The notes under the pieces are model-generated. The model was not told the origin of the DNA and made no database searches. It was given only the letters and a program-made list of their open reading frames with translations. Shown here one piece after another: positions 1,195-62,255 of a stretch of DNA of 64,000 bases. Position numbers and translations under genes: made by a program. Where the stretch lies: NCBI GenBank assembly GCA_028875575.1, contig JAPPDF010000052.1, forward strand, positions 2,554 to 66,553, in the 5' to 3' direction. The DNA comes from Acidobacteriota bacterium. GTDB taxonomy: Bacteria > Acidobacteriota > Terriglobia > Versatilivoradales > Versatilivoraceae. Position 1 is the stretch's first letter. Every line of letters begins with the position of its first letter.

Positions 1195-1562
1195 TGCCGT
1201 TTCAGGTGGGCCCAGCCCGGTGTGCGGATCATTCGAGGATAAAGAGCCGGTCGTCAATACAGGCGAACCACGAATGGACACGGATGAACACGAATAGACT
1301 CGATAACAGATAGACCTGCTTCAACGGCAAGCGGCACCAAAATGTGTCTGAAATCTTGCCCCCGTGGCGTGAGTTCGTGTCCTTGGGGAATGACTCGCTA
1401 CATTGGTTTCAAGATCTCTTGAATCGAAGAAACACGGACAGGTGAGTCAAGAATTGTGGATTTCAGGCGGATTGCAGCAAATTTATAATTCAAATATTTG
1501 GTGTCCATTCATGGTTCTTCGTGCCCCTTCGTGGATAACCCCTCAACTGGTTCGACACAAGG

Positions 1563-9885: not shown

Positions 9886-10094
9886 GCCTGAGCGGCCGGT
9901 TGTTTCAAGCCGCGTCGCACGGGCAGTAGACGAGCCTTGCCGCCCAACCGCATCGGGCTTCGCCATCCGGCTCGGCTTCTGCGACTCCCCCTCAAGGGGA
10001 GAGTGATAGCTGGGGTTCTTGAAGGATGTTATGCGAATATGGAGGGCAGACGCTCGAAGATAATCAGTTGAAAAATCCTATCCGCCGGCAGTTT

Positions 10095-10289
10095 TGTGGG
10101 TTAAGGGGGAGCTGCGAAGCTGCGGCTGGCGTGGGTTACCCGGCGAGACGTCTCCTGCAAGCCATCCTTGTAGAGCTGCAACGCAGCGGCTTCGTGTAGC
10201 CCCGGACGGCAGCCCGGGGTCGTTGGAATTCCGCGCAAACCTAGCCGCGAATGCGGCGCATTTAGAGCTGCGTTTCCGAACCCACAGCC
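10095..10289 (+). repeat. Intergenic repeat element R2, copy A (candidate structured ncRNA)
   Basis: About 195 bp, about 70% identical to 32666-32859. Terminal 8-bp complementary ends TGTGGGTT/AACCCACA and several internal hairpins conserved with compensatory changes. Confidence 0.5.
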
Positions 10290-11227: not shown

Positions 11228-11252
11228 TCCTCCGAAGTGAGATTTCGGGGGG

Positions 11253-11284
11253 CTGGTGTTCTGTCTCAGAAATAGGGTTGCCAT
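11253..11284 (-). repeat. 32-bp repeat unit (copy i), minus-strand reading ATGGCAACCCTATTTCTGAGACAGAACACCAG
   Basis: One of three near-identical copies in the rsmE-OMP intergenic region. Confidence 0.6.
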
Positions 11285-11323
11285 TTTTCGGCGCGAAGCG
11301 GGGCTGGATGCTCGGAGCGGATA

Positions 11324-11355: not shown

Positions 11356-11564
11356 CTCCGATGGAGGTTCCACCGGGAAACGGTCGTAGGAAAGGTCCGT
11401 TGCGTTTCAGAGAACCGCCACCGTTGTGCTCCCCCGCCCTGGAACCTCCATCGGCCCTCCGGGTTCGGGCGGAACAGCGCCGTCGTCGTCGTCGCTCCTC
11501 CTCACAATGAGTGGGCATTGCATCGTCGTCGCTCCTAGAATGCGGCGCTGTTGCGCTCCGAAAT

Positions 11565-11596
11565 ATGGCAACCCTATTTCTGAGACAGAACACTAG
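11565..11596 (+). repeat. 32-bp repeat unit (copy iii, inverted relative to i and ii: ATGGCAACCCTATTTCTGAGACAGAACACTAG)
   Basis: 31/32 identical to copy i but on the opposite strand. It creates the spurious plus-strand ORF 11511-12104 that runs antisense to rsmE. Confidence 0.6.
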
Positions 11597-11618
11597 TCCA
11601 AGGCCGGTGCGGAAGCAA

Positions 11619-18251: not shown

Positions 18252-18328
18252 GGCGTGTCTTCTTTCAACTCTCGTCTGACGTTAGCGCGAAAAATCCGCG
18301 GCTCGCGGAGCAACCAGACCGGGCACGA

Positions 18329-18574
18329 GCCCGCATTTCTCACCAGGGGGCATGATCATGGCGCAGGAATTTTCCCTTCAGCGCGTGCTCGCGACCGAAG
18401 AGCGTAGCGGTCACTACGGTCGAGGGAGCCTGTGCGCGCTGAATGGAAAAGGACCAGTCAGGGCATGCCCAGCGCCGTCTGTTACCTGCAAGCCCTTACC
18501 ATGGAGCCAATCAAGGTACTGAAAGATAAACTGCCTTTCGTCATGCTACCAGCGACCTGGTGAGAAATGCGGGC
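18329..18574 (+). mobile_element. MITE-like element, copy 1 (246 bp, about 20-bp terminal inverted repeats GCCCGCATTTCTCACCAGG / CCTGGTGAGAAATGCGGGC)
   Basis: Perfect terminal inverted repeats, internal nested palindromes, no coding capacity. Flanked by GA…TA. The right flank CTA on the plus strand is the TAG stop codon of degP on the minus strand. Confidence 0.7.
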
Positions 18575-20136
18575 TAGGGCACCGACCCCGTCAGGAAGAG
18601 CGTGGTAATTTCTCCCGCTTCGCGGTCCCAGCGCTTCACCAGGAATAAAAGGTTCATGCCGGACTGCAGGTCGGAGGTGAGTTCCTGCAGGTCACCGACG
18701 GTGCGGGTCGGCTTCTTGTTGATCTCCATGATCAGGTCGTGGGGTCTGATCCGGGCCTCCTCGGCAATGCTGTCGGGTTCGACCCTCATGACGTAGACTC
18801 CGCTCTCCTCATCCGACAAATTGAATTGCCGGGCCAGTCGGGGAGTGAGGTTCTGTGCGGAAATTCCCAGGCGGACCGATTCGGAAGGTCCCTCCTCTGC
18901 AGGAGCAGCGCCGCGGGAAACCGAAGGAAGGTCCTCTCGATCCATGGCCGTCAGTTGGGTGGTCCTGAGCCGGCCGTCCCGAATGTACTTGATGGTGATC
19001 CTGGTTCCCGGGGCCACGGCGGAGAGCACTCGATGCATATCGTAGGTGTCATTGATCTTGTTCCCGTCCACCTCCACGATCACGTCGCCCTGCTCGAGCC
19101 CGGCCTTGGCGGCGGGACCGTCAGCCGGGTCGGCCCTTTCCACAATCACTCCCTTGCCGTCGGCTGCACCCAAGGCCTTGAGTGTTTGAGCGGTAGCCTC
19201 CCCCTGCATCCGAATTCCTATGGCCCCGCGCCGAACCTTGCCATGTTCGATGAGCTGGTTATAGACGTTGGTGGCCAGGTTGGAGGGAAGAGCGAATCCG
19301 ATACCGAGATTTCCCCCCATTCCCCCAAAAGTGTTTTGGGTCAAAATGGCGGTGTTGACGCCGATGACCTCTCCGGCCATGTTGACCAGGGGGCCTCCGC
19401 TGTTGCCCCGGTTGATGGCGGCATCGGTTTGCAAGAACTGTTGCCAGGGCGTGGCATCTCCCATGTTCTTGCGACCGGTGGCGCTGATGATGCCGGCGGT
19501 GACCGTCTGCTCCAGACCAAAGGGGCTGCCCACCGCCAGTACCCAGTCGCCCTGACGCATCCCGTCCGAATCGCCCAACCTGGCAGCGGTGAGCTTGTCT
19601 TCGGCTTCTACCCGGATTACGGCCAGGTCGGTATTGACATCCTTGCCCACCACCTTGGCCTCGTACTCGTCTCCGGTGGACAGCTTGACGGTGATGGTGT
19701 CGGCATTTTCAACCACGTGGGCGTTGGTGAGAATATATCCCTTGGCATCCACCACGAAGCCCGATCCGAGGGACTGGCTCCTACGACTCCGGCGGGGCAT
19801 TTCCGGACCGAAGAAGCGTTCGAAAAAGTCCTGGAACGGGTCGTTGCGGTACTGCCGGCGGGGGGAAGACTGCCGCCTGACGATGGTTTCAGTGCTGATA
19901 TTGACTACCGCGTTCTCGACTTTTTGAGCCACTGTTGAAAAGTGCGACGACAGCTTGGTGGGAGAAGGCACGCTGATGGGCGCGGGCGTGGAGGCCGCCG
20001 ACCTGGCGGCGCTCACGGAATGGTCGATCATGGTGCCGATGGCCACCCCCAGGATGAGGGTTCCCAGAATCATCGAGAAGAAAAGAAGTCTGCGCCTCCT
20101 CATGGCTCTCAATATCCTTTCGACGGAAGCGATCAT
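18574..20136 (-). CDS. degP: Periplasmic serine endoprotease DegP/HtrA (Do family, trypsin domain plus two PDZ domains)
   Basis: Catalytic-triad context (TNAHVV, DLAV, GNSGGPL) and two PDZ domains. ATG 20136 with AAGGTG upstream; a GTG at 20142 is an alternative start. Confidence 0.9.
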   Translation of the reverse strand: MIASVERILRAMRRRRLLFFSMILGTLILGVAIGTMIDHSVSAARSAASTPAPISVPSPTKLSSHFSTVAQKVENAVVNISTETIVRRQSSPRRQYRNDPFQDFFERFFGPEMPRRSRRSQSLGSGFVVDAKGYILTNAHVVENADTITVKLSTGDEYEAKVVGKDVNTDLAVIRVEAEDKLTAARLGDSDGMRQGDWVLAVGSPFGLEQTVTAGIISATGRKNMGDATPWQQFLQTDAAINRGNSGGPLVNMAGEVIGVNTAILTQNTFGGMGGNLGIGFALPSNLATNVYNQLIEHGKVRRGAIGIRMQGEATAQTLKALGAADGKGVIVERADPADGPAAKAGLEQGDVIVEVDGNKINDTYDMHRVLSAVAPGTRITIKYIRDGRLRTTQLTAMDREDLPSVSRGAAPAEEGPSESVRLGISAQNLTPRLARQFNLSDEESGVYVMRVEPDSIAEEARIRPHDLIMEINKKPTRTVGDLQELTSDLQSGMNLLFLVKRWDREAGEITTLFLTGSVP

Positions 20137-20457
20137 GTTCACACCTTGAACAAAGTGTAAGTTATCGCCTCGGTGAGGGCAACCTTGAATGCGCGCGGTA
20201 CGGGAGCAGCCGGCCCCACCCTCGCCTCATGATCCTGCCAATATCTTTTTTGGTAATCGTACGGGGATATGCTAACATCCCGCCGTAATTTGGGCGAGGA
20301 CGGGCCGGGCAGTTTCGGTCCCCGGCGGACCGCCTGAGTCCCGGCGGTGGCCGCGCCCTGTGCTTTCCGGGTCCGGGACAGCATTGCTTTCGAACCCCAA
20401 TCCCTCACATCATCCCTGGCAAGGGATCCTTCGGTTCCCGACCGGCCACTATCGCCG

Positions 20458-32502: not shown

Positions 32503-32665
32503 TTCCAGTCCTCCCGTAAACCCATGTTACCAAACCCTGTCCTGCAACAAGAAACGGATCCACGAACACGATTGTACGACAAAGCTGTGAAGGGAGATCC
32601 GTGGATCAAGTGCCCCCCTACTGGGGCCAGACATTAACCGAAAGAAATTTCCACGCTCAGCAGCA

Positions 32666-32859
32666 TTGTGGGTTAGGGGAGAGCCGCGAAGCTGCGGTTG
32701 GAGTGGGTAGGCAAGGAAACGCTTACTACAAGCCATCCTTATAGAGCTGCGTAGCAGCGGCTCAGGGTAGCCCCGGGCGGCAGCCCGGGGTCGTATGGTT
32801 CTGCTCCAACCCCGCCGCGAAGGCGGCGAATCAAGAGCCGGGTCCCGCAACGCACAGCC
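32666..32859 (+). repeat. Intergenic repeat element R2, copy B (candidate structured ncRNA)
   Basis: Same orientation as copy A (10095-10289). Conserved blocks CAAGCCATCCTT(G/A)TAGAGCTGC and GTAGCCCCGG(A/G)CGGCAGCCCGGGGTCGT. Confidence 0.5.
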
Positions 32860-35729: not shown

Positions 35730-35974
35730 GCCCGCATTTCTCACCAGGGGGCATGATCATGGCGCAGGAATTTCCCCTTCAGCGCGTGCTCGCGACCGAA
35801 GAGCGTAGCGGTTTCTACGGTCGAGGGAGCCTGTGCGCGCTGAAGGGAAAAGGACAAGCCAGGGCATGCCCAGCGCCGTCTGTGATGCGCAAGCCCTTGA
35901 CATTGAGCCAATCAAGGTGCTGAAGATAATCTACTTCTTGTAATGCCTCCAGCGGCCTGGTGAGAAATGCGGGC
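35730..35974 (+). mobile_element. MITE-like element, copy 2
   Basis: About 85% identical to copy 1, same orientation, same terminal inverted repeats. Flanks TA…TC. Track ORFs 35657-35923 (+) and 35503-35760 (-) fall inside it and are rejected. Confidence 0.7.
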
Positions 35975-36053
35975 TCGTCCTGGCATCTGCAGCCAAGACG
36001 CCTGTACGGCCCACGAGAATTCCCTATCCGATCGGCAGTTGGACTGTCGAACT

Positions 36054-45186: not shown

Positions 45187-45322
45187 GAATCGCGGGCTCG
45201 GGTTGGAACCGGAGAGACGGAATCGATCCGTATTCTCACCCCTGGCCCGCGGGGGCGCAGGCACTGGTGTCCCGCACTGCCAACCCGGTGAGAAATATGG
45301 GCTTGTCCCACGGGGTGGACCC

Positions 45323-58366: not shown

Positions 58367-58719
58367 CGATCTGAGAACACGGGGACGCCTTGGCTGGTTT
58401 TGTCCGGTGGGACGTGGAAAGAGTTATCCACAAAGGAAAACGACCAACCACGAATAAACACCAATAAATGGGTTGATGAGTGGGCGATTGAGGAGTTTGG
58501 CAACCGAAATCGAGGGATCACCGGCAAAAGACACGGAGTTTTACCTAGTCGACAAAGTTGCAGAAGCACTCTGGCGCCGCTTGTCGTTGAAGTCGGCCCA
58601 ACTGTGTTCGCGTTTATTCGTGTCTGTCGGTGTTAATTTGTGGTTCGTCTTTATGGACGATTGGGTGTTTCCCCTCGAATGATCCGCACAGCAGGGCGGG
58701 GGCGGGGCTGGACTGCGAC

Positions 58720-59331
58720 TCAGCCTCTTCGGGGTCTCACCAGCTTGAAGGTGTAGGTCCTCTGATCGCCGCTCCGGGTCTGGATCAGCTCCACGCCTTT
58801 TCTGGGATAGCGCCAGCTCGTGGTCTGGAGATCCGGTCGGAGACGGCGGGGCTCCGGACCGAACATCTTCTTGAACAGATCCAGGTTGCCCCGCCGCAGA
58901 ATCGAACGGAATCGTCCCTTCACCTTTCTGGCCAGGGTGGTATTGACGTAGATGGCCATGACCTTGCCGGTCTGCTTGTCGATGTCCAGGTAGATACCTC
59001 GTTCCTGATAGGCGGAACGATACAGGCCTCCCACCGGGGTGGTTCCAAGGGGTTTCCCCAGTTGCTTGTTCTGGTTGACCTCTGCTGTCCGGTCTCCCAA
59101 CTTGACGCCCATGACTGACAGGTTGCGACTGGTCAGATCCGAAATTTGGGTAATATCTTCCTTCACCAGATCGTAGACCTTGATCTCCTCCGGTTCCGGG
59201 GCTGCTTCTTCCGCTTTAGGGGCTTCCGCCTCCGCGTCGGCTGCCGGTGGGGACTCGGGAGCCTGAGTACAACCGGCAATAAATAGCGAAGCGACGACGA
59301 TTGCTATCCCAAGAGTATATTTTCCAGGCAT
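58720..59331 (-). CDS. Hypothetical lipoprotein
   Basis: Lipobox LFIAG|C after signal MPGKYTLGIAIVVAS. GGAGGA SD upstream of ATG 59331. The long 5' extension in the track is rejected. Confidence 0.55.
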   Translation of the reverse strand: MPGKYTLGIAIVVASLFIAGCTQAPESPPAADAEAEAPKAEEAAPEPEEIKVYDLVKEDITQISDLTSRNLSVMGVKLGDRTAEVNQNKQLGKPLGTTPVGGLYRSAYQERGIYLDIDKQTGKVMAIYVNTTLARKVKGRFRSILRRGNLDLFKKMFGPEPRRLRPDLQTTSWRYPRKGVELIQTRSGDQRTYTFKLVRPRRG

Positions 59332-59412
59332 GGCGTCCTCCAGTCGAACTCGGGCGTCCGACGTTGACCTCAAGCGGATGATAATGCATCCGCCGGCGAG
59401 AGCGCAAACAAG

Positions 59413-59622
59413 GTGGCGACCAGGTTTCAACAATACGGAGACTTGCTGACGCTGGGGATCATGTTTCCGGCCTGCATTGCCATCGGATACGGCCTGGGAT
59501 ACTTGCTGGACAGCTGGACGGGGAGCCGGAACACCTTCAGCTTCATCGGCATTCTGTTCGGAATCACGGCGGCTTTCGTCAATCTCTTTCGAGTGGTCAA
59601 GAAGGTCGATGGGAAGGAATGA
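59413..59622 (+). CDS. AtpZ/AtpI-family small membrane protein (ATP synthase operon leader protein)
   Basis: 69-aa two-TM protein immediately upstream of atpI-atpB. Confidence 0.55.
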   Translation: MATRFQQYGDLLTLGIMFPACIAIGYGLGYLLDSWTGSRNTFSFIGILFGITAAFVNLFRVVKKVDGKE

Positions 59623-60067
59623 CATTCATCCCAGGAATCTCTCCTTCGTAGCCTTGACAGACGAGGGCCTGGAGCGCCGGCTTTGGAAAATCAGTCTCGG
59701 CCTGGGCGTTCCGGCCTGTCTGGCAGCCCTGATCCTCGGCGGACTCGACTCGGGCCTGGGCTTCCTGGCAGGGGCGGTGCTCTCCTGGATCAACTTCAGG
59801 TGGCTCAAGCAAGGGGTGGACCATTTCCTGGAAAGCGCCCGCTCGGCGCAGCCGACACCCAAAAGGGCGGCGCGTGCTGCTATCTTCAAGTATTTCTTAA
59901 GATACGCCTTGATTGGGCTGTCACTCTATGCTACATTCCGCGTTGATCTGCTGGAGGTCTTTGGATTTTTCTCGGGCCTTGTCTTGCTGGTCGGTGCCGT
60001 GCTGGTCGAGTGTGTATTGCAAGTGATCAAAGGTTGGGACGAGGACCCTTGCCATGGAACACGGTAG
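59609..60067 (+). CDS. atpI: ATP synthase protein I (AtpI-like, four TM helices)
   Basis: Hydrophobic four-helix protein overlapping atpZ and ending at atpB. Position typical of atpI. Confidence 0.55.
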   Translation: MGRNDIHPRNLSFVALTDEGLERRLWKISLGLGVPACLAALILGGLDSGLGFLAGAVLSWINFRWLKQGVDHFLESARSAQPTPKRAARAAIFKYFLRYALIGLSLYATFRVDLLEVFGFFSGLVLLVGAVLVECVLQVIKGWDEDPCHGTR

Positions 60068-60803
60068 CACCTGGATAGCCGAATGGGTCAACAGCACCTT
60101 GGGTCCGGTGGTGGCGGCTCTGCTCGGCAGTCTCTATGGGCTGTTTGGCTACACATACACTCCCGGGCACATGATCATTCCCGAGCATGTTACCTTTGCC
60201 GTACTGGTGTTTCTCTTCTGCGCGGTGTTTTTCCCCATCGCCGGGCGGTCGTTTTCTCTGGAGAAGCCGGGCAAGATACAACAGATTCTGGAGCTGGTAG
60301 TTGAATTCCTCAACGGGCAGTTGGAGGAGATCATCGGCCATGGGGCCAAAAAGTACCTTCCCATGGTGGCGACCATCGGAATCTTCATTCTGCTGATGAA
60401 CCTTTGCGGACAGATTCCGGGATTTGCCTCTCCGACCAGCAGCATCAACGTGACCGTCGGCTGCGCCCTGGTGGTGTTCCTCTACTACAACTACCTGGGG
60501 ATTCGAAAGCAAGGATTGGTTTCCTATCTCAAGCACTTTGCCGGTCCGGTGCCCCTGATGGCGCCGTTGATGGTTCCGATAGAAATCATCAGCCACTTGG
60601 CCCGACCCTTTTCGCTGTCGGTCCGTCTTTTTGCCAACATCTTCGGAGAGCACCAGGTAGTGGCCGTGTTCTTTGCCCTGGTCCCCTTCATCGTGCCGCT
60701 TCCCATCATGGCGCTGGGAGTGTTTGCCAGTTTTCTGCAGGCTTTCATCTTCATGGTCCTGACCATGATCTATATTGCGGGAGCCGTCTCGGAGGAGCAT
60801 TAA
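60054..60803 (+). CDS. atpB: F0F1 ATP synthase subunit a
   Basis: Subunit a family with conserved Arg in LSVRLFANIFGEH. Stop TAA 60801-60803. Confidence 0.9.
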   Translation: MEHGSTWIAEWVNSTLGPVVAALLGSLYGLFGYTYTPGHMIIPEHVTFAVLVFLFCAVFFPIAGRSFSLEKPGKIQQILELVVEFLNGQLEEIIGHGAKKYLPMVATIGIFILLMNLCGQIPGFASPTSSINVTVGCALVVFLYYNYLGIRKQGLVSYLKHFAGPVPLMAPLMVPIEIISHLARPFSLSVRLFANIFGEHQVVAVFFALVPFIVPLPIMALGVFASFLQAFIFMVLTMIYIAGAVSEEH

Positions 60804-61048
60804 CCCGCATTTCTCACCAGGCCGCTGGTGGCAGGACGAAGGCTAGTTTATCTGTCAGTACCTTGATTGGCTCCATGCAAAGGGCTTGCGGATAACAGAC
60901 GGCGCTGGGCACGCTCTGGCTGGTCTTTTTCCCTCCAGCGCGCACATGCTCCCTCGACCGTAGTGACCGCTACGCTCTTCGCTCGCGAGCACGCGCTTGA
61001 GGGAAAAATCCTGCACCATGATCATGCCCCCTGGTGAGAAATGCGGGT
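60803..61048 (-). mobile_element. MITE-like element, copy 3 (inverted orientation), inserted between atpB and atpE
   Basis: Reverse complement of copies 1 and 2, same terminal inverted repeats, flanked by TA on both sides. The left TA belongs to the atpB TAA stop. Track ORF 60997-61182 inside it is rejected. Confidence 0.7.
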
Positions 61049-61226
61049 TAAGCCTCAGAGGTCACGGCGCCGGCAAGGTCGAATTCGACCGTCCCTGCCA
61101 CTTGTGTGAGCCCGGGATGCACGAGGGGTTCTCGGGAACCACCTCCAAGTGGCGCTTCATTGGTTCCAGCGGAGCTCCTTAAGATCGGGTATCCGCGGCG
61201 AACCCCAACCGAAAGGAGAATCCACC

Positions 61227-61589
61227 GTGAAGCGATTTTACCTGGCAGTCTTCATCGGCATCGTCGTTCTGTTGACGGCATCGCCGGTTTTTGCCCAAAC
61301 CGATGACACCAGCTGGTGGCCGTTTTCGACGGAAGGTACCGGCAGTCACTGGCATTACATCAGCATCGGTTTCGCCATGGCCTTCGCCGCCGCCATTTGC
61401 GGCCTGGCCCAGGGGCGGGCCGTCTCGGCAGCCTGCGAAAGCCTCGCCAGAAATCCCGGAGCCGCAGCTTCCATCCGATTTGCCCTGTTGCTGGGGCTGG
61501 TGCTCATCGAATCGCTGGTCCTCTACACGCTGCTGATTGCCTTCATGCTTTACTTCAAGCTACCGGCAATTCCCCCAACTCCCTTCTAG
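61227..61589 (+). CDS. atpE: F0F1 ATP synthase subunit c with N-terminal signal-like extension
   Basis: C-terminal hairpin with GxGxGxG-like helix 1 (AICGLAQGRAVSAA) and the ion-binding Glu (LIESLVL). GTG 61227 is 7 nt after AAAGGAGAA. Hydrophobic N-terminal segment AVFIGIVVLLTASPVFA. Confidence 0.8.
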   Translation: MKRFYLAVFIGIVVLLTASPVFAQTDDTSWWPFSTEGTGSHWHYISIGFAMAFAAAICGLAQGRAVSAACESLARNPGAAASIRFALLLGLVLIESLVLYTLLIAFMLYFKLPAIPPTPF

Positions 61590-61605
61590 TTCTCGCGGTA
61601 ATTCT

Positions 61606-61645
61606 GCAGCCGCCTGCCGAGACTCCGGCAGGCGGCTTTTTTTTT
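61606..61645 (+). terminator. Rho-independent terminator after atpE
   Basis: GCAGCCGCCTGCCG-AGACTC-CGGCAGGCGGC followed by T9. Confidence 0.6.
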
Positions 61646-61808
61646 GGAGTTTTCCGTTATCGCGTCCTCTGCCGACCCGCAGGACAATAGGTGGAGTGAC
61701 GCCCGCGCTGACGGGATGCCGTCATCCCGCGACAATACTCCTCCAATGAGGGGAGTCAGCAGGACAAGGGCGGAGCCCGCGGTCGAGCCGGTGGGGGTAA
61801 TCGGAAGG

Positions 61809-62255
61809 TTACTGCTGAGGCGCCGTCAGGGTTTCGGCCAGCTTGTCGAAGAAGCGCTTGATCATCATCTTGGAGGTGGTGTCGAGCAGGCGCTGTCCCA
61901 CGGCCGAGATGGTGCCTCCCACTCGGACCTCTCCCTCGTAGCCAACGGACGTTCCACCGTCTTCGGGGGTCAACTGCAGCAGGCCGTCTCCCTTCAGGAA
62001 ACCGATCCTGCCCGATCCTTCAACCAGGAGGCGAAAGCTGTGGGGGAAGTTGCGGTCGGCAATGCGGACCTTGCCGTCGAAAAGGCCGGAGATGCTGGCC
62101 AAAGCCATCTTCATCTTCATGGCGTAGGTGTCTTCGGCCACCTGGACCAGGCTCCGGCAGCCGGGCATGCAGCGCTCCAGCACACTTGGGTCCTGGAGCG
62201 CCCGATAACACTGCTCCTGATCCAGGGCGAGAAAGCGGGATCCGCTGATTTTCAA
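61809..62255 (-). CDS. coxG: Carbon monoxide dehydrogenase subunit G-like (CoxG, SRPBCC fold)
   Basis: CoxG family sequence, 148 aa, downstream of coxM. Confidence 0.7.
   Translation of the reverse strand: MKISGSRFLALDQEQCYRALQDPSVLERCMPGCRSLVQVAEDTYAMKMKMALASISGLFDGKVRIADRNFPHSFRLLVEGSGRIGFLKGDGLLQLTPEDGGTSVGYEGEVRVGGTISAVGQRLLDTTSKMMIKRFFDKLAETLTAPQQ

Follow-up and report, generated by a model that had tools for sequence, protein, structure and literature searches.

What lies between the genes for two F0 subunits of the ATP synthase in an Acidobacteriota bacterium, and does it control the operon that it splits? The question is raised by a 64,000-nucleotide stretch of contig JAPPDF010000052.1 (the window, meaning here the whole stretch that was analysed), in which the genes follow in the order atpZ-atpI-atpB-spacer-atpE and the spacer between atpB and atpE measures 423 nt. 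Within this spacer, at 60804..61047 on the + strand, sits a 244-bp miniature inverted-repeat transposable element (MITE) derived from the IS1380 family of insertion sequences (IS). We consider it very probable that the element is an ordinary and recent insertion of the IS1380 type, with both genes and the atpE leader left intact and with no demonstrated regulatory role.

The original prediction that a repeat element splits atpB from atpE is borne out, and its labelling as a MITE is justified by terminal inverted repeats, a 4-bp duplication with empty sites in relatives, a non-coding interior, multiple copies, and an autonomous IS with matching ends. The spacer length of 423 bp given there agrees with the coordinates of the open reading frames (ORFs). 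The left terminal repeat, CCCGCATTTCTCACCAGG, occupies 60804..60821 (+) and the right one 61030..61047 (-), and the two agree perfectly over 18 of 18 nt. They are flanked by the two TTAA copies of the target-site duplication, at 60800..60803 (where it includes the atpB stop codon) and at 61048..61051. The predicted bounds of 60803..61048 (246 bp) located the element correctly and took in one base of the duplication too many on each side; similarly, the predicted terminal stems exist, their length being not 19 bp: the 18-nt repeats together with the palindromic TTAA flanks give a terminal RNA helix of 22 bp. At three or fewer mismatches the terminal 18-mer occurs seven times in the window, against 0.10 occurrences expected by chance. 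Folded as RNA, 60804..61047 reaches -126.6 kcal/mol (shuffled sequences: mean -90.3, sd 5.0; z=-7.2), and in the fold of the whole spacer the MITE stays a closed, independent domain. A stable fold was thus rightly foreseen; a long hairpin that is perfect throughout is not what we find, as near-perfect pairing is confined to the terminal helix and one internal helix, with the remainder branched and imperfect. Two 56-aa ORFs inside the MITE have no Pfam match, on which ground a small protein encoded in the element was rejected; indels among the copies also disrupt the frames of both.

The most direct evidence for an insertion comes from empty sites. Relatives were found by a search with AtpB, and their encoding contigs (denoted by L numbers) were compared with the window. 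The closest ones (L122, L123, L129-L133 and L136, including the metagenome-assembled genomes (MAGs) GCA_027493225.1 and GCA_027493275.1) show 95.6% nucleotide identity over atpZ, atpI and atpB, and their atpB-atpE spacer is 178 nt long; the terminal repeat is absent from the spacers of all eight. The sequence GCA-TTAA-(244 bp)-TTAA-GCC of the window corresponds to GCA-TTAA-GCC in L122, L123 and L129, and to GCA-TTGA-GCC in L136. These alignments mark the insertion as a recent event, specific to a lineage within Candidatus Versatilivorator or its close relatives (Acidobacteriota). A comparison with the spacers of relatives without the insertion had been proposed as a check on a regulatory role: the element is missing from the closest relatives and occurs in others at this or a neighbouring site (see below), a pattern to be expected of a tolerated, polymorphic insertion rather than of a conserved control element. 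The MITE entered the TTAA at the end of atpB (...CAT TAA), where the left copy of the duplication restores the stop codon and leaves AtpB unchanged; its C-terminus (...SEEH, then the stop) is the same as in relatives with an empty site.

Two further copies are present in the window: one at 18330..18573 (-), abutting the TAG stop codon of an HtrA/DegP-like ORF (18574..20142, minus strand), and one at 35731..35973 (-), intergenic between convergent genes. Both are 88-91% identical to the atp copy and opposite to it in orientation, in line with the earlier description of the atp copy as inverted. The copy at 18330 also has an empty counterpart: CGAG-(element)-CTAG of the window is matched by just one CTAG in the syntenic L025, a Ca. 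Versatilivorator sp. chromosome (OZ241970.1) that is 85-91% identical over 14.8-22.5 kb of the window. Recent activity of the family is suggested by the copy at 35731..35973, which shares 98% identity with one at a non-orthologous site in Ca. Versatilivorator vitaminiformans (L037). Short-read contigs of the atp locus end inside the MITE, as expected for a dispersed repeat; breaking short-read assemblies at the atp locus is also its practical effect.

The identity of the parent follows from the termini. The exact 18-mer, scanned for in one genome per species, is found at at least 120 genomic loci, which among the matches listed belong to the Acidobacteriota (Terriglobia, Bryobacterales and Ca. 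Versatilivorator), the Gammaproteobacteria and Pseudomonadales, the Alphaproteobacteria, and further groups (‘delta proteobacteria’, Aminicenantes, Planctomycetes and others). Mis-binning does not account for the spread across groups, since several of the loci are on closed chromosomes. The same listed matches comprise 68 elements with paired termini, mostly 160-310 bp from terminus to terminus and flanked mostly by CTAG, also by TTAA, CTAA and TTAG. In an Acidobacteriota MAG (L010 336..2046; CAWGEI010000003.1) identical 18-nt termini, flanked by CTAA and TTAA, bound a 1711-bp IS; its 458-aa ORF is an IS1380-family transposase (NF033539, E=1e-118; PF13701, E=1e-155). An annotated IS1380-family IS on the Stutzerimonas zhaodongensis megaplasmid NZ_CP076684.1 (L144 403..2057) has the termini CCCGCATTTCTCACAG, with 14 of 16 terminal bases in common and CTAG on both sides, and a transposase 55% identical to that of L010. 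A tblastn search with the L010 transposase retrieved, among the fetched loci, only L010 itself and a frameshifted copy in L029; in the window no IS1380 transposase was found with the same query. We conclude from these comparisons that the 18-nt ends are the recognition sequence of a widespread IS1380 subgroup and that the window MITE is its non-autonomous derivative, since the ends are conserved across phyla and IS1380 transposases are found between matching ends.

Two other origins were ruled out: IS630/Tc1-mariner, considered because of the CTAG flanks (TA duplication), by the four-base TTAA duplication and the IS1380 transposases; and IS5 (YTAR target, 4 bp), by the filled and empty TTAA sites and, again, the IS1380 transposases. 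Members of the IS1380 family in ISfinder make duplications of 4-5 bp and have termini starting with CC. The TTAA duplication amounts to 4 bp, and the copy in another relative, L124 (see below), is compatible with 5 bp (CCAAG/CTAAG), the length of the duplication made by IS1247 (PMC3281130). Piggybac phylogenies use IS1380 transposases as prokaryotic outgroup (PMC10813416), and the CCC...GGG termini with TTAA duplication agree with this relationship. Mechanistically, the gene-less MITE would be moved in trans by an IS1380-family DDE transposase, a bacterial relative of eukaryotic piggyBac: the enzyme would recognise the 18-nt termini CCCGCATTTCTCACCAGG, insert at YTAR (CTAG, TTAA, CTAA or TTAG) and duplicate four bases. 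Presence/absence polymorphism and 98%-identical copies at non-orthologous sites are indirect pointers to such mobilisation. No annotated plasmid record containing the MITE was found, and a literature search on IS1380 MITEs, acidobacterial MITEs and ‘Versatilivorator’ gave nothing specific; as far as the searchable literature shows, the MITE family is undescribed.

The window is not the only genome with an element in this spacer. L134 (91% identical in atpZ, atpI and atpB) has a 244-bp copy that occupies the identical TTAA, shares the orientation of the window copy and matches it at 94.3% identity, and L124 (88%) has a degraded copy, again in the same orientation, that starts 6 nt past its TGA stop codon; L125, L126, L128, L138, L140, L141 and L142 have no insertion. 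The alignments indicate two or three separate hits on the spacer. Pairwise identities place the window with the empty L122 clade and leave L134 and L141 (empty, TGA) outside, and we favour independent insertions at the same TTAA in the window and in L134: this takes two events, against at least two precise losses after a single ancestral insertion. Such an ancestral insertion followed by precise, piggyBac-like excision is nevertheless possible, as the two copies have derived bases in common and differ at 14 of 244 positions where their flanks differ by ~9% (binomial P=0.03). Import of the filled allele by recombination from the L134 lineage was also considered, and rejected: the window flanks are 96.6% identical to the empty clade and 90.3% to L134, which makes such an import unlikely unless the tract was tiny.

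Why should the end of atpB be hit repeatedly? In the window (GC = 59.8%), YTAR sites are rare: CTAG occurs 16 times (231 expected from base composition), TTAA 18 times (105), CTAA 16 times (148) and TTAG 18 times (164), together 68 in 64 kb against roughly 650 expected, a depletion of about ten-fold that is strongest for CTAG. By an ORF heuristic, and therefore approximately, the flank overlaps an ORF's stop codon (ORFs of 150 aa or more) in 16 of 62 family copies among the listed matches, which makes the position at atpB a typical one; in the window this applies to two of the three copies (the TAA of atpB and the TAG of the DegP-like gene). Relative to the gene whose stop codon is abutted, the listed elements have the same orientation in six cases and the opposite in four, and an orientation bias was rejected. 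The atpB stop codon itself varies: it is TGA in L124, L125, L126, L128, L136 and L141, TAA within TTAA in the window, L122, L129, L134, L138 and L142, and TAG within CTAG in L140. A target is thus gained or lost when one stop codon is synonymously exchanged for another, and in a G+C-rich genome stop codons become landing sites in this way, the TGA-to-TAA switch at the end of atpB making a TTAA. Moreover, conservation is poor over the initial ~45 nt of the native spacer in the alignment of relatives, so that insertions should be tolerated there. With YTAR sites rare and often located at stop codons, the poorly conserved start of the spacer is probably one of few permissive targets.

As regards the operon, atpB (F0 subunit a; 249 aa; PF00119, E=3.4e-55) extends over 60054..60803 (+) with its TAA stop codon at 60801-60803, preceded by atpZ (59413..59622; PF09527) and by atpI (PF03899), which lies between the two. 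Downstream, atpE (F0 subunit c; PF00137, E=8.3e-13 over residues 45-108) is read as 120 aa from a GTG, at 61227..61589 (+), a gene call that recurs in relatives. We note that AtpE carries a ~45-aa N-terminal extension (VKRFYLAVFIGIVVLLTASPVFAQTDD...) ahead of the ATP-synt_C domain that resembles a signal peptide, and that the atpE start in relatives is inconsistent between gene callers (102 to 163 aa). As the original prediction had it, atpE retains its own Shine-Dalgarno sequence (AAAGGAGAA, 61212..61220, +, read from the sequence) and is followed by a terminator, here a strong intrinsic one formed by a 12-bp stem with 10 G-C pairs and then T8 at 61608..61646 (+).

The native atpB-atpE spacer, i.e. 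the atpE leader, is recovered by alignment of relatives as the 175 nt at 61052..61226 (+), and is 96.6% identical to the empty-site spacer of L122, L123, L129 and L136. It contains, outside the MITE, a structured hairpin at 61096..61154 (+), older than the insertion, whose central block is invariant in nine relatives down to 73% AtpB identity and whose outer stem (UGCCACUUG / CAAGUGGCG) shows compensatory changes among them. This stem encloses a CCCGGGA...UCUCGGG hairpin plus ACCACCUCC, a sequence that resembles the anti-Shine-Dalgarno end of 16S rRNA; GAAAGGAG is invariant in the alignment of the relatives' atpE leaders, and the hairpin has no Rfam match. The leader may serve to control translation or processing for subunit c, and the MITE is inserted upstream of this apparent real control region of atpE. 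That the native leader, with its hairpin and Shine-Dalgarno sequence, is untouched downstream is probably why the insertion was tolerated, and its effect on expression is most likely neutral to mild.

A different fate of the message is plausible, a processing site having been among the roles originally proposed. Co-transcribed with atpZ, atpI, atpB and atpE, the MITE would be expected to fold as a closed domain with its 22-bp terminal and 17-bp internal helix, and at most would offer a double-stranded site where RNase III could part the atpB and atpE messages. RNase III does cut the hairpin formed by the terminal repeats of the Correia elements of Neisseria. By analogy, cleavage of the co-transcribed helices might uncouple the stability of atpB and atpE mRNA, which would be relevant to subunit stoichiometry. 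The perfect terminal helix and the internal helix in an independent domain would suit the enzyme, and a consensus scan of 59200..61800 found no promoter-like site, so that atpE is likely to be reached by read-through from atpB (the same result led us to reject a promoter in or near the MITE). Yet the closest relatives do without the element, which makes any such effect dispensable, and native control is more likely to reside in the older, conserved leader hairpin at 61096..61154. We regard the uncoupling as possible but rather doubtful.

Still less can be said for an attenuator or terminator, in which the hairpin would halt part of the transcription between atpB and atpE, as had originally been proposed. 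It could draw on the very stable fold (-126.6 kcal/mol, z=-7.2) and on a weak terminator-like match on the sense strand at 60904-60920, followed by TGGTCTTTTT. This match has only 6 pairs (3 G-C), it is the sole one in the MITE, where a strong terminator is absent, and the region has 6 matches of this kind against 3.3 by chance. In both long helices, the terminal and the internal one, the U-run stands 5' and pairs with an A-run, and no U-run comes after them on the 3' side; they are therefore not intrinsic terminators. Subunit c is the most abundant F0 subunit, so that attenuation should be costly, yet two or three independent insertions were tolerated. With no stem followed by a 3' U-tract, an insertion that varies among relatives and an intact native leader, the attenuator role was given up as very improbable. 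A known RNA family was likewise rejected for the MITE: a scan with Rfam 15 of 59000..62000 at E<=1 had no match within the element, the sole hit of the region being RF02883 (18.5 bits against a gathering score of 40) at the atpE terminator.

The interior of the element deserves separate consideration. Alignment of the copies separates a variable left module of ~75 nt (60822..60895, + in the atp copy), which diverges strongly between subfamilies, from a conserved right part of ~150 nt. Herein lies a conserved core of ~125 nt (60896..61020, +), recognised by our covariance model R1 with 150.1 bits (E=1.8e-35), and within the core a long internal hairpin of ~85 nt (60926..61008, +) with a 17-bp basal stem (UUUUUCCCUCCAGCGCG / CGCGCUUGAGGGAAAAA) and a CGUAG-loop-CUACG tip. 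The tip and adjoining blocks are conserved in sequence; the basal stem varies by subfamily and is still paired, as in L030 (UUUUCGCCCCGUGCGCG / CGCGCACGGGGCGAAAA) and L110 (UUCGUGUCCGUAAGC... / ...GCUUACGAACACGAA). The model has 37 same-strand matches, in loci of Acidobacteriota and of Gammaproteobacteria/Pseudomonadales, in which 86.8% of the cells are paired (31-49% with partners slid) and 34 of 43 pairs show changes on both sides, values reached by none of 500 shuffles; the alignment was fitted to the structure of the model, which inflates these counts. The covariance-model alignment was used since RNAalifold on a plain cross-phylum MAFFT alignment mis-registered the gammaproteobacterial copies. 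Sequence comparison, with the ends read, shows no such core in the parental IS of L010.

Such a core could be more than filling. It could be a functional structured RNA or DNA module spread by the transposon ends, the MITE then being a mobile carrier of a cis-acting structure (one that stabilises RNA, binds a protein or serves as a cofactor site in replication or transposition, for example). The strong covariation, the conservation of the core far above that of the left module, the same architecture in acidobacterial and gammaproteobacterial subfamilies despite their sequence divergence, and the absence of the core from the L010 IS all speak for this. Besides the inflated counts, palindromes can stay symmetric through template-switch repair without selection, the core has no Rfam match, and no copy of it was shown outside the bounds of terminal repeats. 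On balance a functional module seems unlikely, though less so than the attenuator.

A wider version of this idea combines the core with the history of the spacer: a cross-phylum IS1380 MITE family, spanning Acidobacteriota, Gamma- and Alphaproteobacteria and other phyla, with a selected hairpin cargo of ~85 nt and seamless excision, in which the copy at the identical TTAA in L134 and its absence from the 95.6% relatives would go back to one old insertion and later precise excision. We hold this composite reading to be quite improbable. If excision were seamless, insertions at TTAA or CTAG stop codons would be reversible.

Some observations sit uneasily with our account of an ordinary insertion by a selfish element. 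The insertions in the window, L134 and L124 all have the same orientation, which could hint at orientation-dependent selection; the chance probability of three events in the same orientation is 0.25. Flanking tetranucleotides are often non-identical among the listed matches (e.g. CTAA/CTAG or CTAG/TTAA), and the copy in L025 is flanked by CCAG/CTCG where the window's empty site has a single CCAG; a simple 4-bp duplication, even with point mutation, thus misfits some copies. The covariation of the internal hairpin is unexpected for a purely selfish, decaying passenger. Finally, no autonomous IS1380 copy was found in the 64-kb window, so that current mobility is putative. The mismatched flanks might be explained if overhangs from the donor site travelled with the element to its target, as they do in the piggyBac mechanism. 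Mismatches of this sort occur in the window at 18326..18329 and 35974..35977, and in L024, L025, L080 and L090; CGAG recurs beside a terminus.

The shared orientation also bears on an outward promoter, by which the right end of the MITE would drive atpE in the way that ISEcp1 and other IS1380-family elements drive their neighbours. The same end does face atpE in all three spacer insertions, and near the right end the window copy has TTGAGG-17 nt-GATCAT (61002..61030), of which the TTGAGG goes back to a pair of substitutions (positions 195 and 196) that is unique to this copy. The match, however, is 8/12 and lies under the threshold of the scan, which found no promoter-like site; orientation relative to adjacent genes is unbiased in the family (6:4 among the listed matches), and a three-fold coincidence at the chance probability just given is unremarkable. 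An outward promoter is the least probable of the regulatory roles considered. We therefore retain the ordinary, recent insertion. The atp operon is little affected by it: there is no protein change, the atpE leader is untouched, and the nearest relatives lack the insertion.

The window and its relatives hold other repeats as well. At 45284-45301 there is a degenerate terminal repeat (CCCATATTTCTCACCGGG, 3 mismatches), perhaps paired with another near 45232; 45225..45301 may be a remnant of ~75 bp, comparable with the paired termini 47-85 bp in length of L020, L033, L044, L050 and L101. A second, unrelated repeat family occupies 10088..10223 and 32660..32794 (84-86% identity between the window copies). 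A third is an inverted pair, 1211..1384 and 58527..58700 (71% complementary), one copy of which is situated ~700 nt upstream of atpZ; a further match to this family is L100 5097-5267. A 70-nt inverted repeat (11250..11319 / 11530..11599, arms 210 nt apart) could be a small element. In relatives of the L129/L136 type the gap between atpE and COXG has an extra ~260 nt that include sequence related to the second family (L129 3985..4158), so that the region 3' of atpE is an insertion site in sister lineages, too. In L122 (4080..5252, ERZ25084491) an rve-type gene (IS481/IS3-like integrase) lies just 3' of atpE, at the position held by COXG elsewhere, a further sign of mobile DNA accumulating near atpE.

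What the locus offers is a documented bacterial MITE for which the parent family, the YTAR target, the 4-bp duplication and the empty sites can all be read from sequence, and a family that extends over several phyla with invariant 18-nt ends and a covarying internal hairpin. The hairpin, and possible piggyBac-like seamless excision in bacteria, are the main points of interest. Of the known systems, the closest are the IS1380-family IS themselves (L010 and L144), which have identical or near-identical termini (CCCGCATTTCTCAC...) starting with CC and a 4-bp flanking duplication of the CTAG/TTAA type; they are ~1.65-1.7 kb long and carry a transposase, whereas the MITE has 244 bp and no transposase gene, and its interior, the outermost ~35 nt on the right aside, is unrelated to theirs and holds the hairpin core instead. 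The Correia elements of Neisseria are likewise small and non-coding, with terminal inverted repeats and locations between co-transcribed genes, and their terminal hairpin in mRNA is an RNase III substrate that can alter the expression of neighbours; they differ by an unrelated sequence, a TA duplication, a length of ~100-155 bp, and no known IS1380 parent. The REP/BIME and ERIC palindromes resemble the MITE as structured intergenic repeats co-transcribed at the 3' ends of genes, and the tip of its internal hairpin has a REP-like GTAG...CTAC; REPs, however, are 20-40 nt long, depend on RAYT tyrosine transposases and are without terminal inverted repeats or target duplication, whereas the MITE has both and a DDE-type parent. 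The piggyBac transposons and MITEs share with it the TTAA target, the 4-bp duplication and the CCC...GGG termini; they are eukaryotic, while the window MITE is bacterial and accepts the wider set of YTAR targets, CTAG being used most often. PiggyBac is known above all for excising seamlessly; the window MITE might do so too, and the empty sites are compatible with this.

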